Below are positions 3,873 to 29,013 of a stretch of DNA of 32,000 nucleotides, piece after piece. Within the stretch, counting starts at the first letter, position 1. Every line of letters starts with the position of its first letter. Both the position numbers and the translations under genes were made by a program. Location of the stretch: positions 60,001 through 92,000 of the forward strand of contig NC_014735.1 in the NCBI RefSeq assembly GCF_000172995.2. The letters run 5' to 3'. The stretch comes from Halogeometricum borinquense DSM 11551 (GTDB taxonomy: Archaea; Halobacteriota; Halobacteria; Halobacteriales; Haloferacaceae). The notes under the pieces were generated by a model that worked only from the letters and a program-made list of their open reading frames with translations, ran no database searches and had not been told where the DNA came from.

Positions 3873-3914
3873 CCGACGGACGTATCCGGTCGGCCGGATT
3901 TCCACGAATGCAGA

Positions 3915-5046: not shown

Positions 5047-5532
5047 ATGGACGAAAAAGACGTGCAGATACTGAAATCGATGGAAGACCTCGAAACCACG
5101 AGTACAGAGGCGGTGAGCGACGCAACAGGGATTCCAATCTCCACGATTCACTATCGCCTCAACAAACTCCGCGAGACCGGCGTCATCAAAAACGACCGCT
5201 TGGATATCGACCTCGATAAACTCGGATTAGGGGTTACGATTCTCGTAGAAGTCTTCACGAAAGACGACCGGAACCACACCGAGAGCGGCCGAATAATTAG
5301 CGAGGTCGAAGGTGTGACCAAGGTCTTCTTCACGATGGGAAGTACTGATTTCATCGCGCTCGCCCGACTTCCCGACAGCGACAGCGTCGAACGACTCATC
5401 TCCGACTTCGAGGAACTCGATGCGGTCGCCCGGACCGACTCAACGTTCGTCATCGACCGCGAACTCGACAGCCACTACGCACTCCAACAGTACGCAGAAG
5501 AGACGCTCGTCGAGGAACTCATCGAGGAGTGA
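5047..5532 (+). CDS. Lrp/AsnC family transcriptional regulator
   Basis: N-terminal HTH (MDEKDVQILKSMEDLETTSTEAVSDATGIPISTIHYRLNKLRETGVI) followed by a RAM/ligand domain (LGVTILVEV...FIALARL). A TATA-like tatatatt sits at 5003-5010. Confidence 0.9.
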   Translation: MDEKDVQILKSMEDLETTSTEAVSDATGIPISTIHYRLNKLRETGVIKNDRLDIDLDKLGLGVTILVEVFTKDDRNHTESGRIISEVEGVTKVFFTMGSTDFIALARLPDSDSVERLISDFEELDAVARTDSTFVIDRELDSHYALQQYAEETLVEELIEE

Positions 5533-5567
5533 GATTCGTCCCCACCTGAAACAGACACCGTACGACA

Positions 5568-6230: not shown

Positions 6231-6332
6231 CGGAGTTCCCCCACGTTTCTCGCTATCATTCTGCAACCAGTAATAAACCCACTGACCATACGTCACACAA
6301 CCTTCTCCGAACTGTCTCCGCTCGTACTATAT

Positions 6333-7808
6333 ATGACAAAAATGAGACCGGACGTGGTCGTCCACGATGCCCTCGTACTGACAGTTGATGACCGAAACCG
6401 GTTGTTCAAACGCGGTACCGTCATCGTCGAAGACGGAGAAATTACGGCGGTTCGGTCCGCACAGGACGGCGACGCGGACATCGAGGCCGAGCACACGATA
6501 GACGGTGCCGGAAAGCTGGTGTTGCCCGGTCTCATCAACGCACACACCCACCTCGAAGTGACACCTCTCATCGGCGCGTTCAGCGATCTCGACTTCGCGG
6601 AGATGATGGGAAGTATGACCGCTCTTTGCAACCAACTCGCAGGTGGGGAACTCGACTACCTCGCCAGTGCCGGATACGAACTCGCCGCACTCAACTTCCT
6701 CAATGGTGGCGTTACGACCACAAATTCGATGGACGTGCGCCCGAGTCTCGGTGCTGAGACGTTCGGTGAAGCGGGGCTTCGCGGCTTCTTCGGTCCGGCA
6801 ATCTCTGATCTCTTCTGGGATATTCCCGTTGAGGAGCAGTTCTCTCGCGCACGGTCATTTATCGAGACATATCACGACACGTACGACGGTCGAATTCGAG
6901 CGACGATCTGCCCGCACGACGACTGGTCGTGTACGCGAGAGTTGTGGGAGCGTACTGCAGAGTTTGCCGACGAATATCCCGGCTTGCTCGTCCACACGCA
7001 CTTGCTCGAACTCGAAGCGAGCAACAAGATGGCGCGGTCGAACGGAAGTGACGGCTCACTCGAACTCCTTGCAGAAGTTGGACTGTTGAACGACCGACTC
7101 CTCGGCGCGCACTACAGGATTGCCGACGAGGATGACATTCGGCGGACAGCAGAATCAGGCGTCTCCGTCGCTCACTGTCCGTCAATCTTCAGCTACTGGA
7201 ACCCCGATGGAGAGACGCAGTGGACGCCCGTCCCCGAACTCCGTGATGCGGGGGTCGATGTCGGGCTAGGAATCGATGACCACTACTGGCACGATTCGTA
7301 CAATATGTTCGGTGAAGCCAGACAAGCACGCCTTGCAGCCAACCTCAAACGGTCTGCGGGTCAGTTCTCCTCGATGGAACTCGTTCGGATGCTCACTATC
7401 GAAGGAGCGCGAGCACTCGGCATCGACGACGAAGTGGGCAGTCTCGAAGTCGGGAAGCGGGCAGATATGCTCGTCCTCGACGTGGACAAGCCGAAGTTCG
7501 TCCCACTGACGAACATTCCCGCCCACGTTGCGAACAACGCCACTCCTGCCGACGTGGAGACGGTCGTTATCGATGGGAACGTCGTCGTTCGGGATGGGGA
7601 GATTCAAACGATGGACGCCGATGCAGTGACAAAACGCGTCGAGCATGCCGTCGAACGATTCGAGGATGAGTCGGCGTGGAAGCTCGGTGTCGGAGGCGGT
7701 GATCCACCGAGTTCGAAGGAGATTCTCAGAAGGGTGCCGAAACGAGGGCCGAGCCAACTACTTGGCCGACTCGCGGTGCAGTCTCTCAAAGAGAGACTAC
7801 GGGTATAG
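6333..7808 (+). CDS. metal-dependent amidohydrolase (chlorohydrolase/deaminase-like)
   Basis: HxH motif INAHTHLE, second His VHTHLLE, and GLGIDD near the C-terminal Asp ligand region. The start is ambiguous (ATG 6333 or 6342). The track start at 6222 would overlap the divergent regulator gene. Confidence 0.85.
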   Translation: MTKMRPDVVVHDALVLTVDDRNRLFKRGTVIVEDGEITAVRSAQDGDADIEAEHTIDGAGKLVLPGLINAHTHLEVTPLIGAFSDLDFAEMMGSMTALCNQLAGGELDYLASAGYELAALNFLNGGVTTTNSMDVRPSLGAETFGEAGLRGFFGPAISDLFWDIPVEEQFSRARSFIETYHDTYDGRIRATICPHDDWSCTRELWERTAEFADEYPGLLVHTHLLELEASNKMARSNGSDGSLELLAEVGLLNDRLLGAHYRIADEDDIRRTAESGVSVAHCPSIFSYWNPDGETQWTPVPELRDAGVDVGLGIDDHYWHDSYNMFGEARQARLAANLKRSAGQFSSMELVRMLTIEGARALGIDDEVGSLEVGKRADMLVLDVDKPKFVPLTNIPAHVANNATPADVETVVIDGNVVVRDGEIQTMDADAVTKRVEHAVERFEDESAWKLGVGGGDPPSSKEILRRVPKRGPSQLLGRLAVQSLKERLRV

Positions 7809-7864
7809 CGTACGCTGTGCCCCGAATCTTTTCGTTCGTCGGACGTGCCATCTCCCGAAGCGTC

Positions 7865-8551
7865 TCAGAGAGAAGGCTGCTCGACGTTGCGTTCCCAGAA
7901 CGCATCGCGCTCGTACTTCGAGTACGTCGCCTCGTACCCGAGCGCGTTCGCAATCGGGGCAACAACTTTCGCAAGTGGTTTTGTAACGGCGGGCGGGGGG
8001 GACGTGAAGACGGTATCGTCTGCGAGTGCCGCCGCCATCGCCATTCCCTGGAAGAATCCCGGCGACCCATCCTCGTCGAGTTTCCCGTCGTGTGCCAACC
8101 CGAACTGTGTCGAGACCACCGTGAACGTCTGGGCTGCCGGACGCACTGTCGTGAGAGCAACACCGATGGAGTCACCGACAGCTTCGAGGCTGTGAGCTGT
8201 CTCCGGCGGGACCGAAATCTCATCGCCGCGTGAGAGATGGTGTGACTCGCCCTCCATTTCGACAACGAACTCGCCACGAATCACCTCAAACGACTCCTCG
8301 TAGCCGACATGATAGTGTGGTGGTGGACCCTCACCGTTCGCCCTAAAGATGCCGAGACCGGTTTCGTACTCGCCACCAGTTTCGGTAGCCGTTTCGAGAC
8401 CGACAGTCCAGTCTTCCGTGACAGGGTTCGAGAGAAGCGGTGTCGTTCGTTGTCGAAGCCGTTCGGCGACAGGCCCCTCCACATCGACCTCGAAACCGGA
8501 ACCTTCGATCGGCTGACCGTCATCGTCGAGACACCGACCCGTCGTGACCAT
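7865..8551 (-). CDS. cupin domain protein
   Basis: Cupin motif 1 PPHYHVGYEESFEVIRG and motif 2 GDEISVPPETAHS. The track start at 8593 is TTG, so the ATG at 8551 is preferred. Confidence 0.7.
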   Translation of the reverse strand: MVTTGRCLDDDGQPIEGSGFEVDVEGPVAERLRQRTTPLLSNPVTEDWTVGLETATETGGEYETGLGIFRANGEGPPPHYHVGYEESFEVIRGEFVVEMEGESHHLSRGDEISVPPETAHSLEAVGDSIGVALTTVRPAAQTFTVVSTQFGLAHDGKLDEDGSPGFFQGMAMAAALADDTVFTSPPPAVTKPLAKVVAPIANALGYEATYSKYERDAFWERNVEQPSL

Positions 8552-8774
8552 GCTCCCGACAAATACAGCCACCGTGAAAAATAGACAGGTCAAACAATTT
8601 GCAGTATATACGATGACACAATTTTTCGATAATCAATCAATAAGTGGTAGTCATCTCGCCTGTGATTCGAAGGCGGTTGTCAGCCATCGGACGGCGAGGC
8701 CGATTCTTACGAACTGGGAAGTTACATTCGTCTACTAAATGATCGCCCGATGACGTTCAGTTGTGGTGAGTTCA

Positions 8775-10376
8775 ATGAGCGACAATTCAGCAACTCAGTC
8801 AGTGGATCCGGCGGAACGTGACGCCTACTTCGTGGGTGGGGGAATCGCATCGCTCGCCGGAGCAGCCTTCCTCGTCCGTGACGCTGGTGTTCCCGGAGAG
8901 AACATCCATATTCTCGAAAAACTCGACGTGATGGGTGGTGCCCTCGACGGCAGTGGCACGCCGGAGGACGGGTACGTCATCCGTGGCGGTCGAATGTTCA
9001 ACTACCCGACCTACGAGTGTACTTGGGACCTGTTAGAGTCGGTTCCGTCACTCGAAGACCCCGACAGGTCGATCAAGGCCGTCATGGACGAGTTCAACGA
9101 GCGGTACGAGTCCTACGCCGAAACGAGGTTGATGGACGAAGAACAGGAGATTCTCGATGCCTCCTCGTACGACTTCGAGATGGAGCATCGACTGTCGCTG
9201 TTGCAGTTAGCGCTCACACCCGAACGGAAACTAGGTGATACGACGATTGAGGAGTGGTTCTCGGAGTCGTTCTTCGATACGACGTTCTGGTATCTGTGGG
9301 CCACGACGTTCGCGTTCCAACCGTGGCACAGCGTAGTCGAGATGCGGCGGTACATGCACCGCTTCATGCACGAGTTCCCCCGACTCGACACACTCGAAGG
9401 AGTTGATCGAACGAAGTACAACCAGTACGACTCCATCGTTCGCCCCCTCGTTCAATGGCTGAAAGAACGCGATGTCGAGTTCCGCGGTGGCTGTGAGGTG
9501 ACTGCTCTCGATATCACGTCCATGCGCGGAGGGAAGACGGTCGAGGCAATTCACTACGAATCCGACGAGACGCCGAACACGATTGATGTTGCACCAAGCG
9601 ACCTCGTGTTCGTCACGAACGGCTCGATGACCGACGGCTCCAGTCTCGGATCGATGGACGAAGCGCCAACGCTGGACACGACGGGTGCGTCATTCGAGTT
9701 GTGGAAATCCATTGTCGAAGACCATCCGGAGTTCGGCAACCCGTCGGCATTCGCGGATCACGTCCAAGAGACGAAGTGGGAGTCGTTCACCGTCACGCTC
9801 GACGAACCTGACCTGCTCGAATACATAATCGAGGTTACGAGAGAGGAGCCGGGGAACGGGTTGGTCACGTTCACCGACTCGAACTGGCTCATGTCTATCG
9901 TCGTCGCCGGTCAGCCGCACTTTGCGAACCAGCCCGAAGACGTGAAGGTGTTCTGGGGGTACGGTCTCTTCCCCGAAGCGAAGGGCAACTACATCGAAAA
10001 GCGCATGGAAGACTGCACTGGCGAGGAAATTCTCGAAGAACTCTGTTATCACCTCGGTTGCAGCGACCGGTCGTCGTCGTTCATCGAATCTGCGACGTGC
10101 ATCCCCTGCATGATGCCGTTCATCACGAGTCAGTTCATGCCGAGAACGCCCGGGGACCGACCAGACGTCGTTCCCGCGAGATCGAACAATCTCGCATTCC
10201 TCGGTCAGTTCGCCGAACTCCCCAACGATGTTGTATTCACCGTGGAATACTCGGTCCGTTCTGCGATGGTCGCCGTCTACGACCTCCTCGATATCGAGCG
10301 AGACGTTCCCAAGATAAGCGCCCATCAGTACGAACCTGAAGTGCTGATGGATGTTGCGCAAGCGTCGTTCAGATAA
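8775..10376 (+). CDS. oleate hydratase (MCRA family, FAD-dependent)
   Basis: N-terminal dinucleotide-binding motif YFVGGGIASLAGAAFLVRD, then GGALDG and GYVIRGGRMF, characteristic of MCRA/oleate hydratases. An alternative GTG start lies at 8763. Confidence 0.8.
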   Translation: MSDNSATQSVDPAERDAYFVGGGIASLAGAAFLVRDAGVPGENIHILEKLDVMGGALDGSGTPEDGYVIRGGRMFNYPTYECTWDLLESVPSLEDPDRSIKAVMDEFNERYESYAETRLMDEEQEILDASSYDFEMEHRLSLLQLALTPERKLGDTTIEEWFSESFFDTTFWYLWATTFAFQPWHSVVEMRRYMHRFMHEFPRLDTLEGVDRTKYNQYDSIVRPLVQWLKERDVEFRGGCEVTALDITSMRGGKTVEAIHYESDETPNTIDVAPSDLVFVTNGSMTDGSSLGSMDEAPTLDTTGASFELWKSIVEDHPEFGNPSAFADHVQETKWESFTVTLDEPDLLEYIIEVTREEPGNGLVTFTDSNWLMSIVVAGQPHFANQPEDVKVFWGYGLFPEAKGNYIEKRMEDCTGEEILEELCYHLGCSDRSSSFIESATCIPCMMPFITSQFMPRTPGDRPDVVPARSNNLAFLGQFAELPNDVVFTVEYSVRSAMVAVYDLLDIERDVPKISAHQYEPEVLMDVAQASFR

Positions 10377-12368: not shown

Positions 12369-15212
12369 TTACAGCACCGCTCTCGTCAACTCGGCTATGT
12401 CCGCTTTCGACAACGGGTTGATATCGACACGCGTCGCCTCGGCCGTGTAGAAGATGGCGGCGGTCACATCGCGTTCGGGAAAACACTCGTGCAAGACGTG
12501 ATAGTACACGCTGAGTTGCTTCCGATATTCGGCCTCTGCGTGCCGTCCGCGATCTGTTTTGAAATCGATGATTTCGACAGTGTCAGGGAGAATATGAACG
12601 AGGTCAACCACACCTGAGATAGTCACTCGTTCACCATCGACGGTAAGCGGGAGATACACGTCCTCTTCGACCCGTATCTCACCGTCAAGTGAGTCGATCA
12701 GGGTCTTGAGATGAGACTCATCGTCGTTACCTTTCGACGGTTCAACATCCGCTCCGAGTGCGTACCGTTCGGCGAACTCGTGGACCTGTGTTCCGAACTC
12801 AGTTCCCCTTCCGCCTGCAACATCCTCGAACACGTCGTCACGCATCAACGTGTGTGGTGAGTGCCCGACCGGTCCCGCAGGTGTCGGCACCGAGATCTGC
12901 AGGTTCGCCTGTGTCGTCTCGCTACGGTCGTCTGCTTCGACCTCGGGAGTGATTTCTTCGACAGCAACCGGCAGTTCCTCGAAGAACGTGTTCGGATTCT
13001 CGCCTGCCGAAAAGACCAGATGGCTCTCCGCACGAGTCATCGAGACATAGAGCAAGCGTCGCTCCTCGTCGTACCCACGCGGCAAGCAGGTTCGGAGCAC
13101 GTCAGTCCGCCAGTTATCGTGGATATGCGGGTAGCCGTAGTCGTCAGCGTAGCGTTTCCGCTGACGGAGACCGATGGGGTCATCGAACGTGATCGTGTTA
13201 CTGTTCCCGCCGGACGGCGGGAAACGATGGCTGTTCATGTTCACAAGGATGACGATGGGATGTTCGAGACCCTTAGCCGCGTGAATCGTCTGGACAGTTA
13301 CTGAGTTCACCCCGGCGCTCGCGTGAACCTCCTGCGTGCTTCCGTTTTCGATGCCGCGTTCGATAAACTGGATGAGGTCACCACGCGTTACCGTCGTCGC
13401 GCTGTGTATCGATTGAACCGTCGTCAACAACACGTCAGCGTGCGCCCCATCGTAGTTATATCGGGAGAAGACGCGCTGTGCAACCCCGCCGATGGTCTCA
13501 AGCTCCGCCAACTCGGTCTTGAACGCCTGCATGTTATCGGGGTAGCGCTCGGTATCGAGGATGTACTCGATCTCGTCCAGTGTGTAGCCTGCCTCTTCGA
13601 GGACGACCGCCCACCCGCGCTCGGAATCGGCGTCGAGAATGCGAAGCCACGCCAATAGAAGCTTCGCGGGATCAGAGCGGAACAACTCAATTCCCCCCTC
13701 GTACGACATCGGCAGTCCGTACTCCGCCGCGGCCGACAGTAGTTCGCGCCCGAAGTCCCGTGTCCGGGTGAGAACTGCAACGTCTCCGTACTCGGGCGGT
13801 CGAAGCTCACCGTCTTCTTCGACCTGATAGTCCTCGTTCCCCGCGATTTCCTGAATCTTCGTCAAGATGGCTTCGTGTTCGTCCTCGTGCTGAATCGCCT
13901 CGATATTCGAGTTCTCGCAGGGCGTGTTCGCGGAGAGCGACACGATTCGGTCTTGGACCTCTTCGACATCGACCTTGTCTGTACTCGCGGCGGGCGTCAC
14001 CAAACTGTGTTCGGAGAAGTCCAAGATAGCCTGCGTCGAACGGTAGTTCTCGACTAGTTCGATGTCTGTGATAGGGCGAGTCGCCCACGACACTCGTTCG
14101 CCGTCCTCGTTCAGTTCCGCGACGAACCGATCCAGTCGAGACTCGAACTCGGTAATATTCTCGACCGCGGCGTACTGGAACGAGTAGATGCTCTGCTTCC
14201 AGTCACCGACGACACAGAGGTTGTTCGTGTCCGCGAGCAAGAGTGCGAGTTTGAACTGGATCTCGCTTGAGTCCTGAAACTCGTCGATCATCACGTACTC
14301 GAAGGCGACATCGTCGCGGAGGCTGTGGTCGTCACAGAGGAGGACGAAGGCAAACAACTGGAGAAAGCCGAAGTTGAGGTAATTCCGGCTCAGCGCGAAT
14401 TCGAGATACTCGAAATACACGTCGTGAACGAACTGCTTGAGGTCCGCTCGGTCCTCCTCGAACGCCCGACGTGCAACGTCGGCAGGGACCTGTTTCTCCC
14501 CCCGGCCACCACGGATTGTCGATTTGTCGGGAGCGTCCGGGAGATAACATTTGTTCCGCCCGTAGCGGCTAAGCTTCGAACGAAGCCGCGACTGTTTGCT
14601 GCCCCCGTTTCGCGGTTGATTCAACTCGTCGAACAGTTCGCTGAACGCCTCGAAATCACCGTCCAGATGGCGTTCGCCGTTTCGGTACCAGCCATCGGCC
14701 GTTGGAAAGACGCCTTTTGATGCGAGCTGTGTGAGTAATCCGAGGAGTTCGACCGGGTCTTCGATAGCACGGAAGAAGTCGTCATACGCAGCGTGGTCGT
14801 CGCTGAACCGGCGGATGAACTCACGGAACTGCGCTTTCTCGACAGTCTCGTCCTCAAGGATACGCGTCGAACCAGTAATTCGGTCGTCGATGCCGAGGTG
14901 CGTCGGTGCCTCGAACCCATGTTCCATGAGCAGGTCGTGACAGAGACTATGGAACGTCTGAATCGGAGCGTCAGAGAGTTCCCGCATCCCGTAGCCGCAG
15001 TGGGAAACGATCCGGTCTTTCATCTCGGTCGCCGCGTTATTCGTGAACGTCACGAGGAGGACGTCCGCCGGTGCAACCTCGTCCTGATCGACAATCTCCG
15101 CGTACCGGCGGGTGACAGTGAAGGTCTTCCCCGTTCCGGCACCGGCGTCAACGACGTGAATGCCGTCAGTACTGTCGATCAGGTCCTGTTGATGGTCGTT
15201 CGGTTGGGTCAT
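12369..15212 (-). CDS. UvrD/Rep-family SF1 helicase fused to a RecB-type PD-(D/E)XK nuclease (AddA-like)
   Basis: Helicase motifs occur in order: AGAGTGKT (I), VTFTNNAA (Ia), MIDEFQDSS (II), VVGDWKQSIYSFQYA (III), VENYRST (IV), TIHAAKGLEHPIV (V), YVSMTRAESHL (VI). The C-terminal nuclease motifs are GVVDLV, EIIDFKTD and QLSVYY. Confidence 0.9.
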   Translation of the reverse strand: MTQPNDHQQDLIDSTDGIHVVDAGAGTGKTFTVTRRYAEIVDQDEVAPADVLLVTFTNNAATEMKDRIVSHCGYGMRELSDAPIQTFHSLCHDLLMEHGFEAPTHLGIDDRITGSTRILEDETVEKAQFREFIRRFSDDHAAYDDFFRAIEDPVELLGLLTQLASKGVFPTADGWYRNGERHLDGDFEAFSELFDELNQPRNGGSKQSRLRSKLSRYGRNKCYLPDAPDKSTIRGGRGEKQVPADVARRAFEEDRADLKQFVHDVYFEYLEFALSRNYLNFGFLQLFAFVLLCDDHSLRDDVAFEYVMIDEFQDSSEIQFKLALLLADTNNLCVVGDWKQSIYSFQYAAVENITEFESRLDRFVAELNEDGERVSWATRPITDIELVENYRSTQAILDFSEHSLVTPAASTDKVDVEEVQDRIVSLSANTPCENSNIEAIQHEDEHEAILTKIQEIAGNEDYQVEEDGELRPPEYGDVAVLTRTRDFGRELLSAAAEYGLPMSYEGGIELFRSDPAKLLLAWLRILDADSERGWAVVLEEAGYTLDEIEYILDTERYPDNMQAFKTELAELETIGGVAQRVFSRYNYDGAHADVLLTTVQSIHSATTVTRGDLIQFIERGIENGSTQEVHASAGVNSVTVQTIHAAKGLEHPIVILVNMNSHRFPPSGGNSNTITFDDPIGLRQRKRYADDYGYPHIHDNWRTDVLRTCLPRGYDEERRLLYVSMTRAESHLVFSAGENPNTFFEELPVAVEEITPEVEADDRSETTQANLQISVPTPAGPVGHSPHTLMRDDVFEDVAGGRGTEFGTQVHEFAERYALGADVEPSKGNDDESHLKTLIDSLDGEIRVEEDVYLPLTVDGERVTISGVVDLVHILPDTVEIIDFKTDRGRHAEAEYRKQLSVYYHVLHECFPERDVTAAIFYTAEATRVDINPLSKADIAELTRAVL

Positions 15213-17797
15213 CGTGATTCCTCCTCCAGAATGCAGTCTCGGTTATCCACGTACCGATAGTTCGGATCGCCGCCGAGTCCCCCAACTGGGAACCGTTCGT
15301 CACCGGCGCGGCGAGCGTTCAACTCTTCGAGTCGTTCTTGCACGAACTGTTCGAAGGCGTCTACATCGTCTGCGAAGTAGTTCTTGTTTCGAATCCGAAG
15401 CACGTGTCTGAGCGCCTGCTTACAGCCGTTTTTTACGTATTTGTAGTCACCGACGTTCTCCTTCATCCGCGCTGTCAGCGCGTGCCCGAACTCGGAGTCG
15501 ATGAGTTCGTCGCTATCACGCGTCTGTGGGAGTTCGTGCGTCTCGAAAATCGCACGATACTCCTCGTACTCCGTTTTCGAGAACGTCTTGTTGCAGTCGT
15601 TCGCGGCCTCCGATTTCAGTTCGTTGAAGACGGCCTCTGTCGCAACGTACTCCGCGAAGGTGTGCGGATAGTACGTCACCGTCGTCAGGCAGTCGTCCAG
15701 AGAGGCCTCACCAGCGACGATGTCATCAAGCGTTTCGAGGAAGTGAAAGAACGTGAATTGGAGTTCCTGGTCTGGCTGTACGGTACGCTGGTGAGCGAGG
15801 TACAGCAGTGCTTGGAAGTTTGGCTTGTCGCTCGGTGGGTCGAGCGCCGAATGTTTGACTATCGAGTGCGCAGACTTCTTCGACCCGCTCTTGTAGTCGA
15901 GAAGATGCGTCGAGTCGTGAACGAGGTCGATTTTGCCTTTCAGACCGAGGTCGCTGTTCTCGAACCACCGTTCCGTGTGGGGTGTGTCAATGGGGCGGTC
16001 GTAGTACTCGGCGAAGAAATTCCGTCCCCAGCCGTCGTTTCCGGCAACGAACTCGTCGCCGTGGGGTGGGTTCGTGTCCAAGAACTCGACGATAGTCTGG
16101 AGTCCGAGACGGTACTTGGTGTGTCGGACCTCCCGGTCAACCCCACGGAGGAATGGATCAACTTCATCGAGGATGATCTCCGCAACTTCAGCAAGCGTCT
16201 CGTCCGTGACAGACTCGGGATGAGCGACGTAATACTCCGCAAAGTCGTGAAGCAGATTTCCTTCCCTGAAGTAGTCCTTGTCCGGAGTATCGAGAAGTCG
16301 AGAGAAAAAGTAGTCTCGGGGTGAGTTGACGTAGGTGTTGAGGCTCGACTGGCTGATGGTCGTGACTTCAGCAGCAGCGATGTCGAGTGGTTCCTTCGCA
16401 AAGCCGTCCGCCGTCGTTCGAAACGCGCGTGAGTGTGGAACCGAATCGAGATCGCTGAATCGCTCGAAGGTCTCATCGAACAGTTCCTCGAAATACAGAC
16501 ACGGGGTCACGGGTGTCCCCCCGGCGGTATCCTGTACGAGGTAGTACTGGTCGATACCGTTCTGGAGGAGCAGTTGGAACTGCTGGATGTTGCGCTCGAA
16601 CTCCCGGTCGCGGTCAACCCACGGCCGCCGTGGGGGCGAGTGCGTCCACCCCTCGTCGAGACCGAGGTAAAACACGACAGGCCGGTCAACGTGAGCCGCT
16701 GACTTCGCATCTGCCAACAGCACACCCTCGTTTCCGTGATCGACGGGGATATCGTACGTCTGTACGTAGAATTCGAGTCGGTCAACTGCCTCCTCAGTAA
16801 CGGGGTCGGTCAAGAGACCAAGCGTGGAAAGTTCGTCACGGAACGCATCGAGAACGGTGTCCGCAGCGGATTCGTAAGCATCGAGGGCCGCACTGAACGT
16901 ACCGGTACGAACCTCGTCGTGGAGTTCGAGAAGCCAGTTGGCCGCTTGCTGGTCGCTGTCGTAAAGGCGCTTTTCGTCGTGTTCGATATCGATCGATTTT
17001 CCGAACCGGGTGAGCAACGGCCTAACGTCACTAATTCGGGTCTCCCGTCCGGCATGGGCACTACGGAGAAGTTGCAGAAACGTCCTGTGATGGGGTAGGT
17101 CGTCGAATCCGGGACCGCCGTGGTACGGAATCCCCGCCGCCTCGAATGCGGATTCGATGAGCGACGAGTACTGACTGGCAGCATCGAGGACGACACCGAC
17201 GTCATCGGCGTTTTCCTGAGTGACAGTATCGAGAACTGCATCGACAATCGCGGCCGGAGAGTCAAAGACACGGAACGGCGGGTAGTCGAACGTCTCATCG
17301 GCGAACGGATCGATTGTCTCGTAGTCGGGCGGGAGAATCGAACGTTCGAGTGCGGTAAGTTGCGTTAGTCCGACGACGGCAACTGACGTATCGGCATCGA
17401 TAGTGTACTCGGTGAGTCGGCGGAGGGTTGTGTCCGACTCACTGACGCAGTTAACGACTGTCCGCGTTGCTGCAGTGCGGAACAGTTCGTATTCGAGGAT
17501 TGACTCGGCCGTTCCTTGATACTCCCAGCATTGGTGGATGTTTCCGACCGCATGGGACGCCTCCTTCCAATCGAGGTCGGTCGATTCGATACTTTCGAGA
17601 AACGAAAGTCGGTACTCGTCCTGTTCGCGGCGTTGTGCAGCGAGGCGACGGGGCGTGATCGCAAACGGACCAAAGTGTGGTCGGTCGAGACGCCGATTGA
17701 GTGCGCTCGCCATCGGCGCGTCGGGCACGAGCACAAGGTCAAAGCCCTTGCATTCCTCGTAGAGGGCGTCGATAGATTTCGCTCGTGTGATTGGCAC
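15209..17797 (-). CDS. PD-(D/E)XK nuclease protein with a degenerate helicase-like body (AddB/RexB-like)
   Basis: 862 aa with a GTG start. Its stop overlaps the downstream helicase start (ATGA on the minus strand, 15209-15212). There is no Walker A. VLLADAKSAAHVDRPVVFYLGLDEGW resembles the AddB 2A-domain remnant. The C-terminal nuclease motifs are GKIDLVHD, LLDYKSG and FQALLYL. Confidence 0.75.
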   Translation of the reverse strand: MPITRAKSIDALYEECKGFDLVLVPDAPMASALNRRLDRPHFGPFAITPRRLAAQRREQDEYRLSFLESIESTDLDWKEASHAVGNIHQCWEYQGTAESILEYELFRTAATRTVVNCVSESDTTLRRLTEYTIDADTSVAVVGLTQLTALERSILPPDYETIDPFADETFDYPPFRVFDSPAAIVDAVLDTVTQENADDVGVVLDAASQYSSLIESAFEAAGIPYHGGPGFDDLPHHRTFLQLLRSAHAGRETRISDVRPLLTRFGKSIDIEHDEKRLYDSDQQAANWLLELHDEVRTGTFSAALDAYESAADTVLDAFRDELSTLGLLTDPVTEEAVDRLEFYVQTYDIPVDHGNEGVLLADAKSAAHVDRPVVFYLGLDEGWTHSPPRRPWVDRDREFERNIQQFQLLLQNGIDQYYLVQDTAGGTPVTPCLYFEELFDETFERFSDLDSVPHSRAFRTTADGFAKEPLDIAAAEVTTISQSSLNTYVNSPRDYFFSRLLDTPDKDYFREGNLLHDFAEYYVAHPESVTDETLAEVAEIILDEVDPFLRGVDREVRHTKYRLGLQTIVEFLDTNPPHGDEFVAGNDGWGRNFFAEYYDRPIDTPHTERWFENSDLGLKGKIDLVHDSTHLLDYKSGSKKSAHSIVKHSALDPPSDKPNFQALLYLAHQRTVQPDQELQFTFFHFLETLDDIVAGEASLDDCLTTVTYYPHTFAEYVATEAVFNELKSEAANDCNKTFSKTEYEEYRAIFETHELPQTRDSDELIDSEFGHALTARMKENVGDYKYVKNGCKQALRHVLRIRNKNYFADDVDAFEQFVQERLEELNARRAGDERFPVGGLGGDPNYRYVDNRDCILEEESR

Positions 17798-17821
17798 GGA
17801 GTACGGAACTCAACTTGGTTG

Positions 17822-17828
17822 TAAAAAT
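17822..17828 (-). promoter_or_regulatory. TATA-box candidate for the AddB-like/AddA-like operon
   Basis: The plus-strand taaaaat reads attttta on the minus strand. It is centred about 28 nt upstream of the GTG at 17797 and marks the start of a roughly 320 bp AT-rich spacer. Confidence 0.35.
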
Positions 17829-18116
17829 GTACCGTTGAGAGATATCTGAGAGGGGTGCAGTGGAGTGATAGAAAGGGAGTATGTAACCGGTATACGTAAG
17901 AGACACCAAATATAGAAACAAAAACAGGATATCGAGTGATATACGTAGTGTATTAAGAGAGTAGCACACAGATATATTGGTGAAATGTAGATAACTAGGA
18001 GGATATGAGATCTAAAAACAGTGTATTCACTAGCGGCATATTAAAATGTGAAAACAAACCAAAATATAAAAACAGATCGTATCGAAACCCAATCGAAACT
18101 GCTGTCAAACCGCTAT

Positions 18117-18777: not shown

Positions 18778-19185
18778 ATGACCGTACATGGGATGATACC
18801 CATGGACTGGAACCGCCTCGGACCACGTGAAAAGGAACTGTTAGCAATCCTGCGACGGAGCGAACAGTCCTTGACTTCGCGGGAAGTCCAGCGTGAACTC
18901 CGAGAAGACGGCGTCGATGTCGTGTACTCGACAGTGAGTGCGACACTCGACCGCCTCGTCGAGAAGCGGTTAGTGGACCGAACCGAGGAGATGCAGCGTG
19001 GATCACCTCGATACCGACACACCTTCGCGGCCGACCAGTACGCCGGTGAACTCCTCGATTCGATCGTCGAGGACGTATCCGAAGTCCTCGGTACTGACGG
19101 CCTGACTGGACTGGTGCGAAGGGCCGAGGCGATGGGCGGGGATGAGCAATCGAACGAACACAACCCTACAAATACGAAAGCATGA
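18778..19185 (+). CDS. BlaI/MecI/CopY-family winged-helix transcriptional regulator
   Basis: LGPREKELLAILRRSEQSLTSREVQRELREDGVDVVYSTVSATLDRLVEKRLVDRTEE..GSPRYRHTF fits the Penicillinase_R pattern (..YSTV.T.L.RL..K.L..R....G....Y). It lacks the C-terminal CxCxxxxCxC of CopY. The start is ambiguous (ATG 18778, 18793 or 18802). The stop overlaps the halocyanin start (ATGA at 19182-19185). Confidence 0.7.
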   Translation: MTVHGMIPMDWNRLGPREKELLAILRRSEQSLTSREVQRELREDGVDVVYSTVSATLDRLVEKRLVDRTEEMQRGSPRYRHTFAADQYAGELLDSIVEDVSEVLGTDGLTGLVRRAEAMGGDEQSNEHNPTNTKA

Positions 19186-19697
19186 CAACGAAACTCGATA
19201 GGCGGAAGTTGATGAAGCAAATTGGAATCACTGGGACCGTAGCGCTGCTGGGTGGCGTCGCCGGATGTACCAGTAGCGCTGACTCAAGCGGTGATGGGGG
19301 TGCGGAGACTGAGGCGAAGACCGCGACATCCAAACCGAAGGACAGCTCGTCGGACGGTGAAAAGTGGACGAAAACCGACACCGTCGATATGAACGATGAA
19401 CTGAAATTCGCACCGAAGCGCATCAAAGTGGAGTCAGGAACGACTGTCACGTGGAAGAACGTCGGTGCAGTCGGCCACACCGTCACCGCCTATGAGGACG
19501 AGATACCCGACGGCGCGACGTACTTCGCGTCGGGTGGATTCGACTCCGAGAAAGCGGCGAAAGACGGCTATCCCGACAAGGGGAACGTGACAGAAGGAGG
19601 CACCTACGAGCACACGTTCGAGACCAAGGGAACGTACAAGTACTACTGTGTACCGCACGAGATGAACGCAATGGTCGGATACGTCAAGGTTATTTAA
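19182..19697 (+). CDS. halocyanin / plastocyanin-like type-1 blue copper protein, Tat lipoprotein
   Basis: Signal RRKLMKQIGITGTVALLGGVAGC (twin-Arg plus lipobox). Type-1 Cu ligands are GAVGHTV and YYCVPHEMNAMVG (C-x2-H-x4-M). Confidence 0.9.
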   Translation: MTTKLDRRKLMKQIGITGTVALLGGVAGCTSSADSSGDGGAETEAKTATSKPKDSSSDGEKWTKTDTVDMNDELKFAPKRIKVESGTTVTWKNVGAVGHTVTAYEDEIPDGATYFASGGFDSEKAAKDGYPDKGNVTEGGTYEHTFETKGTYKYYCVPHEMNAMVGYVKVI

Positions 19698-19698
19698 A

Positions 19699-21717
19699 AT
19701 GAGTTCACACGACACATCGGAGGGGGAGGAGACCGACACCAAAACAGAGCGTAGCGCAGAGACATTACTATCGGAACACGAGGCGCAGTTGAATGCGCTT
19801 ATTGCAGACGTACAGGGGCCGGACGCGGACCCAGTAGAGACGCAACTTCCGAATCTCGGTCTTGGTCTCGGTCGCCGGGACTTCATGAAAGCGGGGGCAG
19901 CCGTCGGGGTTCTGGGCTCCGTCGCCGGGTGTGCAGGGCAGGGCGACAGCCAGGGTGGTACAGCCACGCCGTCTTCGAGTCACGGCGATGTGCCCGACCA
20001 CTTCGTTCCGCCGGGCGAACACGACAAGTACTACGGCTTCTGGAGTGGCGGTCACTCCGGCGAAGTGAGAGTAATGGGAATTCCGTCGATGCGGGAACTC
20101 ACGCGAATCCCCGTGTTCAACAGGGAGTGCGCGAAGGGATACGGTTTCGACGACGGAACGGGGGAGATGCTTAAAGACGCAGGCGACTACACGTGGGGTG
20201 ACTCTCACCACCCGAGCTTATCCGAGACCGATGGGAAGTACGACGGCGAGTACCTATTCGTCAACGACAAAGCCAACGGCCGCGTCGCACGGGTGAATCT
20301 GAAGTACTTCGAGACGGATGCGATTCTGGACGTGCCGAACGTCCAGTCAGTCCACGGATGCTGCATTCAGAGCCCCGACACCGAGTACGTCTTCGCCAAC
20401 GGTGAGTTCCGTGCGCCGCTTCCAAACGACGGGCGCGACGTAGACGACCCGTCGAAGTACGTCTCGCTGTTTTCGGCCATCGACCCCGAAAGCATGGACG
20501 TACTCTGGCAGGTGAAAGTCAGCGGCAACCTCGACATCGCCGACTCCGACAAAGACGGCCGGTGGCTGCTCTCGTCGTCGTACAACGACGAAGAGGGGGT
20601 CGAAATCGAGGAGATGACCCGCGACGACCGCGACTCGGTGAAGGCGTTCGACGTACCAGCCATTCAGAAAGCGGTTGATGCCGGGAAGTACGAGGAGGTC
20701 AACGGCGTCCCCGTCGTCGATGGGACCCGTGAAAGTTCACTCAACAAGGGCGATAACCCACTCGTCCGCTACATCCCGACGCCGAAATCACCCCACTGCG
20801 TTGAGGTGACGCCGGACGGAAAGTACGGCATCGTCGCCGGAAAGCTCTCTCCGACCGTCTCGATCATCGATATCGAGAAACTCGGAACCGAACCCGACCC
20901 GGCGAAGACGATTGTCGGCCAGCCCAAACTCGGTCTCGGTCCACTGCACACTACGTACGACGACCGCGGTCACGGGTACACCTCGCTGTTCATCGACTCG
21001 CAGGTCGTCAAGTGGGATATCGAAAAGGCAGTGGAGTCACCAAAAGGCTCCGAGGAGGCCATTCTCGGGAAGATAGACGTCCACTACAACCCAGGACACA
21101 TCCAAGCGGTACAGGCAATGTCCGTCGAACCGACCGGCGATTGGCTCGTCGTCCTCAACAAACTGTCGAAGGACCGGTTCCTCCCAGTCGGACCGATTCA
21201 CCCCGACAACGACCAACTCATCTACATCGGAAACGACAAAGACAACGAAACCGGTGGAATGGAACTGGTTTCCGATCACCCCGTCTATCCCGAACCGCAC
21301 GACGCCATCATGGTCCACAAAGACAAGTTGGACCCGGCGAAGATATGGGATGCCAAGGACTACGAGGGAGAACGGGAGTACATCTCCGAGAAGAACTCGG
21401 GAATCGAACGCCTCGACGACTCGACCGTCGAGGTGAACATGAGTTCCAAGCGGAGCGAGTTCGGCCTCCGTGAATTCACGGTGAAAGAAGGCGACGAAGT
21501 GCAGATGACCGTGACGAACATCGAGAAGAGTCCGGACATCATCCACGGAGTTGCCATCCCCGAACACGACATCAACCTCGCGCTCGCCCCACAGGACACT
21601 CGGGAAGTAACGTTCGCCGCGGATGATCCCGGCGTCTACTGGATCTACTGCACGTACTTCTGTAGCGCACTGCACCTAGAGATGCGCTCGCGGATGATCG
21701 TCGAACCACGGGACTGA
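19699..21717 (+). CDS. nosZ: nitrous-oxide reductase
   Basis: 672 aa. Tat motif GRRDFMKAG (RR at residues 59-60) and lipobox VAGC (Cys78). CuZ-region WGDSHHPSLSETDGKYDGEYLFVNDKANGRVARV. CuA loop CTYFCSALHLEM (21649-21684). The gene starts 1 nt after the halocyanin stop. Confidence 0.97.
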   Translation: MSSHDTSEGEETDTKTERSAETLLSEHEAQLNALIADVQGPDADPVETQLPNLGLGLGRRDFMKAGAAVGVLGSVAGCAGQGDSQGGTATPSSSHGDVPDHFVPPGEHDKYYGFWSGGHSGEVRVMGIPSMRELTRIPVFNRECAKGYGFDDGTGEMLKDAGDYTWGDSHHPSLSETDGKYDGEYLFVNDKANGRVARVNLKYFETDAILDVPNVQSVHGCCIQSPDTEYVFANGEFRAPLPNDGRDVDDPSKYVSLFSAIDPESMDVLWQVKVSGNLDIADSDKDGRWLLSSSYNDEEGVEIEEMTRDDRDSVKAFDVPAIQKAVDAGKYEEVNGVPVVDGTRESSLNKGDNPLVRYIPTPKSPHCVEVTPDGKYGIVAGKLSPTVSIIDIEKLGTEPDPAKTIVGQPKLGLGPLHTTYDDRGHGYTSLFIDSQVVKWDIEKAVESPKGSEEAILGKIDVHYNPGHIQAVQAMSVEPTGDWLVVLNKLSKDRFLPVGPIHPDNDQLIYIGNDKDNETGGMELVSDHPVYPEPHDAIMVHKDKLDPAKIWDAKDYEGEREYISEKNSGIERLDDSTVEVNMSSKRSEFGLREFTVKEGDEVQMTVTNIEKSPDIIHGVAIPEHDINLALAPQDTREVTFAADDPGVYWIYCTYFCSALHLEMRSRMIVEPRD

Positions 21718-21723
21718 ACCATC

Positions 21724-22488
21724 ATGAATCTGCCAGGACGAACCGAGTTCGCCCAACTCCGCCGGTTGCTTCCGGTGGGAGCGGCAGTGCTGCTGCTCGG
21801 TGCACTGTTACTCCCGATGTGGTCCATCGAGATGCACGCCGTGCAGTATCCGAACGAACCGCTCCACCTCAGCCTGTACGCCTACCCACAGGTCAGCGGC
21901 GACTTCGTCGAGATCCATCGGCTGAACAAATACATCGGGTTCTACTATCCGGATCCTGTGTTCTGGCAGCCGAACTACGAACCGCACCCGCGGGCGATAG
22001 ACGTTCCGGAGTGGTCGCTCGGGCCACTAGCGTTCGTCGGGGTGGCTGCAACGAGTGTGTTCGTTGCGCTCGCGCCGACCGCCCGGAAACTCCGGCGTGG
22101 CCTCACACTCCAACTTGTCGGGGCCGTCGCGGTGTTCGCCGGTCTGCTGGCAGACATCCAGTTCCGACTGTATCAGGCAGGCCACACGCTGGATCCGGAT
22201 GCGCCTGTCATGGGCGTTGAGGGGTTCACACCGCCGCTTTTGGGAACCTATTCGGTTGCCAATATCACGAGTTACTCGCGGTTCGGTGCCGGTGCCTACC
22301 TGACGATGCTTGCTATCGGACTGCTGGTGGTTAGCTACGCGGTCCGCAATTCGACGGTCACGCTGTGGGAGGTCCCGGGATACGCCCGGAACCGATTCAC
22401 GGGCGACGACGAGACGACGGAACCGACAACCGGGACGACAAGCGAGCGAGCGTCCGCTCCGGACGCCTCCCGAACGGGGCGGCGGTAA
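21724..22488 (+). CDS. 4-TM integral membrane protein of unknown function, in the position nosB occupies in clade II clusters
   Basis: 254 aa with four hydrophobic helices (LLPVGAAVLLLGALLLPMW, LGPLAFVGVAATSVFVALAP, LQLVGAVAVFAGLLADI, AYLTMLAIGLLVVSYAV) and a large first extracytoplasmic loop. It starts 6 nt after the nosZ stop and ends 2 nt before the nosD start. Confidence 0.7.
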   Translation: MNLPGRTEFAQLRRLLPVGAAVLLLGALLLPMWSIEMHAVQYPNEPLHLSLYAYPQVSGDFVEIHRLNKYIGFYYPDPVFWQPNYEPHPRAIDVPEWSLGPLAFVGVAATSVFVALAPTARKLRRGLTLQLVGAVAVFAGLLADIQFRLYQAGHTLDPDAPVMGVEGFTPPLLGTYSVANITSYSRFGAGAYLTMLAIGLLVVSYAVRNSTVTLWEVPGYARNRFTGDDETTEPTTGTTSERASAPDASRTGRR

Positions 22489-22490
22489 CG

Positions 22491-23873
22491 ATGCCGTCTG
22501 TATCGGCCGAACGAGCGTTCGCCCTCTTCGCGGTCGTCGTTCTCCTCGGCACGACACTCTCAGCGCTGACGGTTCCGACGGCCGCAGGAGCGGATGACAG
22601 CCTCGCCTTCGAACCCGGTGTTCCGGAAGAGTACGCCTTCGACGCACCGACCGAAACGGGAACGGCGACCGTCGGCGGCGACTCCTACGAGTCGGTACAA
22701 GCGGCCGTCGATGCGGCCACGCCCGGAGACACCGTCCACATACGGGGGTCCTTCTCCGAGCGTGTTATCATCTCGACGCCGAACATCACACTCGAAAGCG
22801 CACCCGGTCGGTTGGCCCGTATCGACGGCGATGAGACGGAAGATGCACTCACGATAGACGCCGACGGCGTTACTGTCCGCCGAATCTGGATTCACAACTC
22901 CGGACGCGACACCGGAAGTAACGACGCCGGCATCTGGGTCAACGGCACGGACGCGCGCATACTCGACAGTCGTCTGACTGACGTCACCTTCGGTATCTGG
23001 GTGAACGGCGTTGACGACGTACTTCTGCGGAACAACACGATTGTCGGCCGCGAAGCGGTCCGGCCGTTATCCTATCGAGGAAACGGCATCCAACTCTGGA
23101 AAACGACAGATACCCGCGTCGTCGAAAACCGCATCACCGACGTTCGAGACGGGTTGTACTACTCGTGGGCGTCGAACGTAACCGCACGGGAGAACACGAT
23201 GTGGGAACTTCGATACGGCGTCCACTACATGTACTCGGACGACTGCCGGTTACAGAACAACACCTCGTTCGATAACGACGTCGGCTACGCGCTCATGCTC
23301 TCAGAGCACATTGAGGTCGTAGATAACGTCGCCGTGAACAACACCGGCGTGAGCGGACACGGGATTCTCCTCAAGCGGATCGACGACTCCGTCGTTCGGG
23401 GGAATCACTTCGTCGGCAACGACCGGGGCATCTACGTGCTGAACTCGGTCCGAAACGTGATGGCAAACAACCTCGTCATGGAGAACGGCATCGGCGTCCA
23501 TCTCACCGCCGGAACCGAAGACGAACGCGTCTTCGGGAATAGCTTCGTCAATAACGACCGGTCAGTGTTCGCGGTCACCGGCGAGTTGGCCGTCTGGAAC
23601 GCGTCCGAACGAGGTAACTACTGGTCGTCCGCCGACGCCGCCGACATCGACAACGACGGCATCAGCGACGTTCGCTACCGGCCGTCTGGACTGGTAGAGC
23701 ATCTGATCTACGAGCATCCACAGGCGGCGGTGTTCGCAGACAGCCCCGCATTCGACGCCATCCGCTTGGCTGAGAGTTCCTTCCCGGTCATCGAATCACC
23801 GGGAGTTGTCGATCACCACCCGCTCACGACACCACCACACAGCGACTGGAGACGATACTATGAACGCAATTGA
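22491..23873 (+). CDS. nosD: copper-enzyme maturation beta-helix protein NosD
   Basis: Signal MPSVSAERAFALFAVVVLLGTTLSALTVPTAAG, then many parallel beta-helix repeat units (N-x-I/V-x-x-N: LRNNTIVG, VENRITD, ARENTMW, LQNNTSF, VVDNVAVNN, VRGNHFVGN, MANNLVMEN, FGNSFVNN). The ATG at 22491 is preferred over the track start at 22365. Confidence 0.9.
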   Translation: MPSVSAERAFALFAVVVLLGTTLSALTVPTAAGADDSLAFEPGVPEEYAFDAPTETGTATVGGDSYESVQAAVDAATPGDTVHIRGSFSERVIISTPNITLESAPGRLARIDGDETEDALTIDADGVTVRRIWIHNSGRDTGSNDAGIWVNGTDARILDSRLTDVTFGIWVNGVDDVLLRNNTIVGREAVRPLSYRGNGIQLWKTTDTRVVENRITDVRDGLYYSWASNVTARENTMWELRYGVHYMYSDDCRLQNNTSFDNDVGYALMLSEHIEVVDNVAVNNTGVSGHGILLKRIDDSVVRGNHFVGNDRGIYVLNSVRNVMANNLVMENGIGVHLTAGTEDERVFGNSFVNNDRSVFAVTGELAVWNASERGNYWSSADAADIDNDGISDVRYRPSGLVEHLIYEHPQAAVFADSPAFDAIRLAESSFPVIESPGVVDHHPLTTPPHSDWRRYYERN

Positions 23874-24828
23874 CGTAACCGACGTAACGCAAACCTACGG
23901 CGACGTGACGGCTCTCGACGGCCTGTCACTATCCATCGAACCGGGGACTACCTTCGGTCTGCTCGGTACGAACGGTGCAGGAAAGTCTACGCTGTTCAAA
24001 CTGGTCGTCGGGCACGTCCGACCCGACACCGGCACGGTTTCGGTCGCCGGGCAGAACGTTGAGACAGCAGGCCCGGCCATCCGTAGCGAAGTCGGATACC
24101 TGCCCGAACACGCCGGATTCCCACCAGCGCTTACCGGCCGGGAGGTACTCGAATTTCACGCGAAGATGCGCGGGCTCGACGACGCGGACGACCGCATCGA
24201 AAGCGTTCTCAGTCTCGTCGGACTGCGTGACGCCGCCGACCGGCGAACCGGCGGGTACTCGAACGGAATGAATCGCCGTCTCGGATTGGCGACAGCGCTG
24301 CTTTCCCGACCGACGATTCTCCTGCTGGATGAACCCACTGCAGGCCTCGATCCACGAGGAGTCGCCGCGTTCCACGACGTCGTCGAACGACTAGCGCGGG
24401 ACGACGACCTCACGGTCGTCCTCTCCTCGCACGTGCTCTCGGAGGTCGAAAAGTTGTGTGATACGGTCGGCATCGTTCACAACGGGCGACTGCGTGCTGG
24501 CGGGTCGGTCGAAGCGTTGAAGCGAGACCTGATCGACGGCGTCCGAGTCCGCGTCCGTCTGGCCGACGCGGGGTCAATGGCCGACGCGACTTCAGTAGTC
24601 GATGAACACGACGGAGCCATTCGGTCCCAATCTAACCGCGAGTTCACCGTCGAATGCTCGTCGGAAGTCCCCCCCGGCCTGTTAGACGACCTGATGGACG
24701 CCGCGTCGCTGTCGGGGTACGAGGTTACCGAGCCGGGCCTCGAACAGGTCTTCGAGCACACTCTTGGCGGCGCGTCGAAGAAAGAGCAGGGAGAAGACGC
24801 GGAAGAGCAGGAGAGGGAGAAAACATGA
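23860..24828 (+). CDS. nosF: ABC ATPase NosF
   Basis: Walker A GTNGAGKST, signature YSNGMNRRLGLA, Walker B ILLLDEPTAGLD, H-loop SSHVL. Overlaps the nosD end by 14 nt. Acidic C-terminal tail KKEQGEDAEEQEREKT. Confidence 0.9.
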   Translation: MNAIDVTDVTQTYGDVTALDGLSLSIEPGTTFGLLGTNGAGKSTLFKLVVGHVRPDTGTVSVAGQNVETAGPAIRSEVGYLPEHAGFPPALTGREVLEFHAKMRGLDDADDRIESVLSLVGLRDAADRRTGGYSNGMNRRLGLATALLSRPTILLLDEPTAGLDPRGVAAFHDVVERLARDDDLTVVLSSHVLSEVEKLCDTVGIVHNGRLRAGGSVEALKRDLIDGVRVRVRLADAGSMADATSVVDEHDGAIRSQSNREFTVECSSEVPPGLLDDLMDAASLSGYEVTEPGLEQVFEHTLGGASKKEQGEDAEEQEREKT

Positions 24829-29010: not shown

Positions 29011-29013
29011 CCA

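Follow-up and report, generated by a model that had tools for sequence, protein, structure and literature searches.

Whether haloarchaea carry a DNA-end-processing enzyme of the RecBCD/AddAB kind is the question raised by two adjoining genes of Halogeometricum borinquense DSM 11551, here called B and A, which lie in a stretch of 32,000 nucleotides (contig NC_014735.1 of assembly GCF_000172995.2, positions 60,001 to 92,000; "the window" below means this whole stretch). We conclude, with a probability of roughly 0.8, that the two products make up a compact AddAB-class heterodimer with a single motor and two nucleases that processes DNA ends, on the basis of fold, aligned nuclease motifs and the obligate pairing of the genes. 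The pair lies outside the curated AddA and AddB equivalog families, yet it is of the AddAB class by its architecture, fold, nuclease motifs and operon structure, and it is a divergent variant of that class, not a new principle.

A 2020 review of Haloferax volcanii lists no RecBCD/AddAB-type enzyme and records HerA and NurA as absent from this organism, and a 2026 preprint states that RecBCD and AddAB "are not present in archaea", with H. volcanii lacking direct homologues. That addAB has reached archaea is not a new idea, to go by the statement in which Reuter et al. (2010; PMC2887965) cite Cromie (2009) for a transfer "even into the archaea". In the literature searched, the content of Cromie (2009) excepted, we found no paper that characterizes or describes the pair, its AddB-like partner or the loss of iron–sulfur (Fe–S) cysteines reported below. 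A preliminary description of the window, made from the DNA letters, had proposed that the pair has the AddA/AddB architecture and that it is a bacterial-type machine, acquired horizontally from bacteria. The first proposal is borne out by the results that follow; the second is not. None of the outcomes named beforehand as refuting the first occurred: B does align with AddB, the motifs that hold the catalytic residues line up, and the pair is neither universal in Halobacteria nor, in the literature searched, characterized.

Protein B is predicted to have an AddB-like fold

The only Pfam match of B is PDDEXK_1 (residues 480-739, 7.6e-13), and the degenerate helicase-like body that had been proposed for the rest of the protein is invisible by sequence; in an AlphaFold (AF2) model it is clear. 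This model, computed from an alignment of 118 sequences whose diverse members came from an exhaustive profile search, reached a predicted local distance difference test score (pLDDT) of 93.8 and a predicted TM-score (pTM) of 0.86, and consists of alpha/beta core domains with helical inserts. A first model, computed from close haloarchaeal homologues only, had a pLDDT of 64.7 and was discarded; the deeper alignment remedied its quality. In a Foldseek comparison with the PDB, five Bacillus subtilis AddB chains rank first (E 3.6e-14 to 8.9e-14, TMq 0.47-0.50, about 1,000-1,200 columns, 11-12% identity; best 4cej_B and 3u44_B), followed by mycobacterial AdnA (4e-11), Escherichia coli RecC (4e-10) and UvrD, PcrA and Rep (about 1e-8). 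Given this order of matches, the model presents B as a nuclease domain preceded by a body of UvrD fold, that is, as a member of the "partner" subunit class of AddAB, AdnAB and RecBCD.

The relationship to AddB is also present, as a real but faint signal, in sequence profiles. The AddB profile of 12 sequences used for this comparison included the addB of a mislabelled Staphylococcus aureus record and eight diverse Firmicutes addB from the plasmid collection, and the signal became significant only once these eight had joined the profile. With it, hhalign aligned the B family at 92.3% (E 5.6e-7) over 300 columns, spanning residues 355-674 of B and 569-979 of S. aureus AddB, and weaker colinear matches span the N-terminal domains of B. 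The alignment superposes the motifs SxS..[C/S]P..Y, G..H, GxID, DYKS and Q...Y of the two proteins, so placed that SQSSLNTYVNSPRDY of B stands opposite SVSRFEGYQQCPFKHY of S. aureus AddB, GNLLHD opposite GDIFHS, GKIDLV opposite GQIDRI, LLDYKSG opposite IIDYKSS, and FQALLYL opposite MQMMTYM. These motifs of B correspond to the residue classes given for the active site of AddB (E915, D944, D961, K963, Q981 and Y985; Saikrishnan et al., 2012; PMC3321194); E609 of B was placed in motif I on the grounds of position and order, without an aligned residue pair. H517, E609, D624, D634, K636 and Y666 do not vary across 118 diverse homologues, and Q662 hardly varies, in keeping with the intact nuclease that had been attributed to this protein of 862 residues.

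Among canonical pairs, the 21-kb Enterococcus faecium plasmid pV1164-3 carries addB/addA beside an ISL3 transposase. Like other canonical AddB partners, this one is called simply "PD-(D/E)XK nuclease family protein" by the NCBI annotation pipeline (PGAP).

Protein A is a superfamily 1 helicase fused to a RecB-family nuclease

In A, Pfam recognizes UvrD-helicase (4e-50), UvrD_C (6e-29) and PDDEXK_1 (1e-8); these are three of the hidden Markov models that the preliminary description had suggested for a search, and the AddB models that it also named gave no match with B. The core residues of helicase motifs I-VI are invariant in the homologue alignment, which includes a Woesearchaeota partner at 37% identity. 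In the nuclease, H811, D870, D883-x-K885, Q899 and Y903 are invariant among the homologues and E849 nearly so. A is thus the full superfamily 1 (SF1) helicase with a RecB nuclease that it had been said to be.

Compared with S. aureus AddA, A gives 3e-26 in BLASTP and 99.9% in hhalign; the whole motor is aligned, the nuclease motifs more weakly. Among the NCBIfam models, addA_alphas fits best at A 849-927, a stretch that pairs with positions 1051-1134 of the 1138 in the model, the top score is that of PcrA (195 bits), and the "RecB-like helicase" model NF010485 stays below threshold (98.7 bits, cut-off 650). PADLOC returns only generic GajB, UvrD and DRT helicase matches for A and no significant system for B. 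Some homologues of A bear the name "helicase/nuclease subunit A" in the Joint Genome Institute (JGI) annotation.

B and A form one system

The two genes overlap on the minus strand, as had been described, the stop of B and the start of A sharing the 4 bp ATGA. The order implied by the earlier wording has to be reversed: B, its "second" gene, is the upstream one and the first to be transcribed. In 80/80 haloarchaeal loci fetched, B is followed directly by a homologue of A in the same orientation, and the identities of the two proteins to their counterparts move together (83/77%, 71/62% and 61/53%). The order B-then-A recurs in a Woesearchaeota genome, a Methanomethylophilaceae contig and a hypersaline metagenome contig, and it is also that of addB-addA in S. 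aureus. Because adjacency and co-divergence hold in the haloarchaeal loci and the pairing extends to distant lineages, we regard B and A as one system. Two exceptions were seen: a contig labelled Poribacteria has B (2944-5589) and no adjacent UvrD gene, and a contig whose neighbouring genes are bacterial, a sigma-54 activator among them, encodes, at 493-5697, a B of 918 residues paired with a UvrD protein of 813 residues in which no nuclease was detected. Clustering of all neighbouring open reading frames disclosed no third conserved gene beside the pair; the next commonest neighbours resemble Orc1/Cdc6 (10 loci) and ParA (7 loci).

Some individual neighbourhoods hold further gene groups. Near the AddAB-like pair of Halomicrobium katesii, at 3662-8027, stands a helicase–nuclease pair of another kind, in which a PD-(D/E)XK protein of 931 residues is followed by an SF1B-type helicase of 525 residues (AAA_11/AAA_12); genes for a methyltransferase and a ResIII helicase and one resembling BrxC/PglY lie beside it. 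In three loci of a clade at about 76%, B is directly preceded, in the same orientation, by genes for a conserved protein of 577 residues without a Pfam match and an ATPase of 987 residues (SMC_N/AAA_23/AAA_21), which gives LmuB-like PADLOC matches (1121-5814 or equivalent); these two genes may extend the operon or constitute a Lamassu-like system of their own.

B lacks an ATP site and the iron–sulfur cysteines

The absence of a Walker A motif from B, claimed earlier, holds: the protein has no GxGK[ST], its N-terminus reads DLVLVPDAPMASALN, and no conserved P-loop column exists across the 118 homologues. The position of the P-loop is filled by VPDAPMAS and that of DExx by VAVVGLTQLTALE (VAVVG...LTALE), leaving no Walker B; these placements derive from the weak colinear hhalign matches. 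AddB keeps Walker A (PMC3321194).

In many AddAB complexes the AddB nuclease holds a 4Fe-4S iron staple made of one upstream cysteine and a C-terminal CxxCx5C, the first cysteine standing about 300 residues from the second (PMC3321194). S. aureus AddB has this layout (C784; C1112, C1115, C1121). The B of H. borinquense has S492 at the first cysteine site and no C-terminal CxxCx5C, and the remark that no four-cysteine pattern is evident in it was correct. Among the diverse homologues, 62% have a cysteine at the position of S492 (motif CPRxY), and nearly all those at 27% identity to the query or less add a C-terminal CxxCx5C, in distant relatives with the spacing reported for AddB; distant members also give weak Cas4 matches on this C-terminal motif. 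Because these distant members retain the AddB/Cas4 cysteine pattern, the sequences indicate that the iron staple is ancestral in the B family and that it was lost in the subfamily containing all the haloarchaeal proteins.

The pair is accessory and mobile among haloarchaea

At least 118 genomes, counted as one genome per GTDB species, have a homologue of B; the figure is a lower bound, the scan having used two peptide patterns. All 80 loci returned are from Halobacteria, and the pair is not universal there. The family is small (573 clusters at 90% identity), and a profile search of 1.84 billion proteins found 447 representatives (50% identity, E<=0.001). Named members beyond Halobacteria are mostly archaeal (Woesearchaeota/Nanoarchaeota, Methanomethylophilaceae, unclassified "archaeon"), and a few contigs of metagenome-assembled genomes that carry B have bacterial labels.

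Within Halobacteria the pair is an accessory, horizontally mobile module of two genes. In PLSDB, 36 plasmids carry it, all of them haloarchaeal. The B copies of Halorubrum sp. CSM-61, a Haloglomus halophilum plasmid and a Natronorubrum bangense plasmid are 96-98% identical (B at about 6001-8586), which indicates, from the sequences, a very recent transfer between orders, and the B of H. borinquense is 62% identical to that of its congener H. pallidum; the gene tree is at odds with taxonomy. Two divergent copies are present in some genomes. In Salinigranum rubrum an IS5-family transposase splits the B of plasmid NZ_CP026311.1 (38151-41675), and an intact copy lies on a second plasmid of the strain. 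Other copies are chromosomal and stand in housekeeping neighbourhoods, for example S24e/Kae1 in Halorarum halobium. Over many genera the pair is kept at 53-83% identity with its catalytic residues intact. A viral origin or carriage was considered and rejected, no relative being present in phage GenBank records or IMG/VR.

The distribution survey that the preliminary description had proposed thus makes transfer among haloarchaea evident. A recent acquisition of "bacterial-type" AddAB is not supported: canonical AddB lies out of profile reach, the named relatives outside Halobacteria are mostly archaeal, the NCBIfam thresholds for AddA and AddB are not attained, and the GC content of the pair, overall and at third codon positions (GC3), equals that of the neighbouring genes in the window, with no sign of recent foreign origin.

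The locus in H. borinquense

The features of the locus are collected in Table 1. An AT-rich block upstream of the pair, put at about 320 bp in the preliminary description, separates B from the next gene. It is probably the promoter region, taking general haloarchaeal promoter architecture as the model. Its TTTTTA element, with its centre some 27 nt upstream of the B start codon GTG, suggests a haloarchaeal TATA box and a leaderless B mRNA. The identical B protein is recorded for H. borinquense on a contig of 362,641 bp, from its size probably a megaplasmid. The genes around the pair (an MCRA-family hydratase, a transporter of the major facilitator superfamily (MFS), a MaoC-like dehydratase and the nos cluster) are unrelated to it.

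Table 1. Positions in the window of the B-A pair, its domains and other features (domain boundaries approximate)
Feature	Position	Strand	Residues	Description
Gene B	15209-17797	minus	862 aa	Starts with GTG; AddB-like; opens the operon, upstream of A
B scaffold	16373-17797	minus	~1-475	Predicted inactivated UvrD-like helicase body, without Walker A/B
B nuclease core	15578-16360	minus	~480-740	S482-x-S...S492-P-x-x-Y, G513...H517, E609, D624, D634-x-K636, Q662...Y666
B stop/A start	15212-15209	minus		Shared ATGA
Gene A	12369-15212	minus	947 aa	ATG start; AddA-like: SF1A UvrD-type motor and C-terminal RecB-family nuclease
A helicase	12993-15212	minus	~1-740	I GAGTGKT, II DEFQD, III GDWKQSIY, IV NYRS, V TIHAAKGLE, VI YVSMTRA
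A nuclease	12423-12815	minus	~800-930	H811, E849, D870, D883-F-K885-T-D, Q899...Y903; PDDEXK_1 at 847-923
AT-rich intergenic block	17798-18116	minus		319 bp, 37.3% GC (window, 57.1%); separates B from the next gene
TATA-like element	17827-17822			TTTTTA
MCRA-family protein	8763-10376		537 aa	Oleate-hydratase-like; Pfam match 1.6e-215
Nitrous-oxide reductase (nos) cluster	19182-25775			Just upstream of the pair, divergent orientation
Cupredoxin	19182-19697			Member of nos cluster
NosZ	19699-21717			Member of nos cluster
NosD	22365-23873			Member of nos cluster
Second low-GC stretch	28201-29100			About 0.39-0.41 GC in 300-bp windows

Discussion

The enzyme that the pair most resembles is the AddAB of B. 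subtilis and other Firmicutes (RexAB; 3U44, 3U4Q, 4CEH-4CEJ). The two have in common an operon with B upstream of A, an SF1A motor and a RecB nuclease in A, and a B with a UvrD-like fold devoid of helicase motifs and a nuclease with the E of motif I, the D of motif II, D-x-K and Q...Y; the distant relatives of B also share the Cys...CxxCx5C staple. They differ in size, the B of H. borinquense having 862 residues against about 1157-1166 and its A 947 against about 1217-1232 (some 25% smaller), in the absence of Walker A from B and of the Fe–S cysteines from the whole haloarchaeal branch, and in a structural identity of about 12%. Compactness is also found in epsilonproteobacterial AddAB (Helicobacter/Campylobacter), with similar subunit sizes. 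Moreover, AddAB is a core enzyme of Firmicutes, whereas the haloarchaeal pair is accessory and moves on plasmids.

Mycobacterial AdnAB (6PPJ, 6PPR, 7SJR) likewise consists of two subunits of UvrD-like fold, each with a C-terminal RecB-type nuclease, but AdnA keeps Walker A and Walker B (PMC3321194) and the B described here has neither. In E. coli RecBCD, the helicase fold of RecC is fully inactivated and serves as a scaffold with no ATP site, as the N-terminal body of B appears to do; the nuclease-like domain of RecC is inactive, however (PMC3321194), whereas B, to judge by its sequence, keeps all catalytic residues. A RecD-like gene is neither in the window neighbourhood nor conserved near the pair elsewhere. 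The UvrD-Cas4 fusions (Hudaiberdiev et al., 2017; PMC5704561) join, as A does, a UvrD-like SF1 helicase to a pfam12705 nuclease and occur in bacteria and in mesophilic archaea, but they are described as stand-alone genes or as linked to Type III restriction–modification (RM) or Dcm/Vsr, with no obligate AddB-like partner described, and the top neighbour families of our pair include neither Mod/Res nor Dcm/Vsr. Gabija is also dissimilar despite the generic GajB matches, in that A adjoins an AddB-like gene and an MFS transporter and not a GajA ATPase-nuclease of the OLD/TOPRIM kind. GajB has no nuclease fusion.

Several results weigh against placing the pair in the AddAB class. A falls far below the NCBIfam cut-offs for AddA (TIGR02785, 165 against 707.65 bits; TIGR02784, 153 against 860.75 bits), and B matches nothing in NCBIfam at E<=0.1, hence no AddB model. 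B matched no PDB sequence in HMMER searches with the single sequence, with a profile of 26 haloarchaeal sequences or with the 118-sequence profile, and a distant Fe–S-bearing relative gave two matches at chance level (E 1 and 2), to the calcium uniporter. Since the 447 relatives found among 1.84 billion proteins do not extend to it, canonical bacterial AddB is out of the reach of HMMER. The structural match is to be read with its whole-protein TM-score of about 0.5, its root-mean-square deviation of about 11 A and its use of a model of B alone, without A. In hhalign, neither a single S. aureus AddB nor a Staphylococcus-only profile gave a significant result, and the nuclease domain alone reached 16%. 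The patchy, plasmid-borne spread is unlike that of a core repair enzyme. Finally, because Bacillus AddAB needs its Fe–S cluster for DNA binding (PMC3321194), a cluster-free B would have to bind ends in another way.

If the pair is an enzyme of the AddAB class, what has it been selected for? One view, to which we give tentative credence at best, is that the enzyme serves defence or competition between mobile elements, as a plasmid-borne "exonuclease V" directed at incoming linear DNA of viruses or plasmids, and which possibly also feeds CRISPR adaptation. Its accessory and patchy spread over 36 haloarchaeal plasmids would fit, as would the near-identical copies in Halorubrum, Haloglomus and Natronorubrum, the conflict between tree and taxonomy, the two divergent copies in one genome and the copy disrupted by IS5. 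A minority of loci, in a tally made without a baseline rate, adjoin bacteriophage exclusion (BREX)-like and RM genes (Halomicrobium katesii) or GmrSD; matches to LmuB-like, type IIG RM, PbeA, BrxHII, AriA and Csx1 proteins occur among the upstream neighbours, again in a minority of loci; and Hudaiberdiev et al. (2017; PMC5704561) tied UvrD-Cas4 fusions to defence contexts. However, no defence partner is consistent, many loci are metabolic or housekeeping in character (S24e/Kae1; MCRA, MFS, MaoC and nos), PADLOC reports nothing significant for B and generic UvrD/GajB matches for A, and no element that would discriminate self from non-self was recognized in the pair.

A second view holds that the same enzyme chiefly carries out long-range end resection for RadA-dependent repair of double-strand breaks, in place of HerA-NurA. 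This too is possible without being probable. The enzyme is built like those that carry out resection in bacteria, chromosomal copies sit among housekeeping genes, and the catalytic residues stay intact at 53-83% identity over many genera. Against this, the pair is often plasmid-borne and recently transferred and is not universal in Halobacteria, and no recombinase-loading element was recognized. The H. volcanii plasmids in PLSDB hold no copy, and the 2026 preprint reports no AddAB/RecBCD homologue for this organism, so haloarchaeal recombination can proceed independently of the pair.

That A is a stand-alone fusion of the UvrD-Cas4 type and B an unrelated PD-(D/E)XK nuclease next door is very improbable. 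The databases name the two separately ("PD-(D/E)XK nuclease family protein" and "UvrD-helicase domain-containing protein"), and the two exceptional contigs described above would agree with independence; but strict adjacency and orientation in all 80 loci, stepwise co-divergence, the 4-bp overlap of reading frames, the pairing kept in very distant lineages and a predicted fold that places B with the partner subunits AddB, AdnA and RecC and not with free nucleases speak strongly against it. A role in plasmid replication or maintenance, for instance as a PcrA-like helicase in replication or multimer processing, is the least credible of all, since the PcrA score of A and the Orc1/Cdc6-like and ParA-like neighbours that favour it are offset by two conserved nuclease sites and an AddB-like partner that are foreign to replication helicases, by the many chromosomal copies, and by the fact that Orc/ParA neighbours are a minority and reflect plasmid location.

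For the AddAB-class heterodimer, the Bacillus enzyme offers a model of how it may work. By this analogy we infer that A and B form a complex that binds the end of double-stranded DNA. Motor activity would reside in A alone, whose SF1A ATPase of the UvrD type would draw through the 3'-ended strand, which the RecB-type nuclease at the C-terminus of A would cut. B, as a dead helicase scaffold, would clamp onto A, guide the strands and cut the 5'-ended strand with its AddB-type nuclease, so that linear duplex DNA is resected or fully degraded. The dead-helicase body of B would, by analogy with AddB and RecC, be the part that reads a Chi-like regulatory sequence, if any exists. In the cell, the enzyme would prepare broken ends for RadA-mediated recombination and would also destroy unprotected linear DNA; reasoning from its bacterial counterparts, we consider such a dual role most likely. 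Bacterial RecBCD and AddAB enzymes serve both repair and DNA destruction, and the AddAB class is primarily a repair class. A more far-reaching picture, speculative and on balance unlikely, is that the pair represents a mostly archaeal AddAB-class lineage, its B stripped of ATP site and Fe–S cluster, that, as a mobile RecBCD-like machine, supplies long-range resection where HerA-NurA is missing and polices linear DNA, possibly with an archaeal Chi-like control exerted through B and with products that serve as substrates for CRISPR adaptation.

What, then, does the pair mean for haloarchaeal biology? It is an AddAB-class module that has stayed hidden under generic annotation and is missing from the main model organism, H. 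volcanii, in which the lack of HerA-NurA and of RecBCD/AddAB leaves long-range end resection unexplained. Two genes are thus put forward as candidates for archaeal end resection, for the degradation of viral and plasmid DNA and for a RecBCD-like stimulation of spacer acquisition. The haloarchaeal branch is also a natural experiment, in which an AddB-type nuclease would act at DNA ends without the iron–sulfur staple, and the plasmid mobility of the pair bears on how repair and defence functions spread. Widespread and overlooked, the pair is experimentally tractable.

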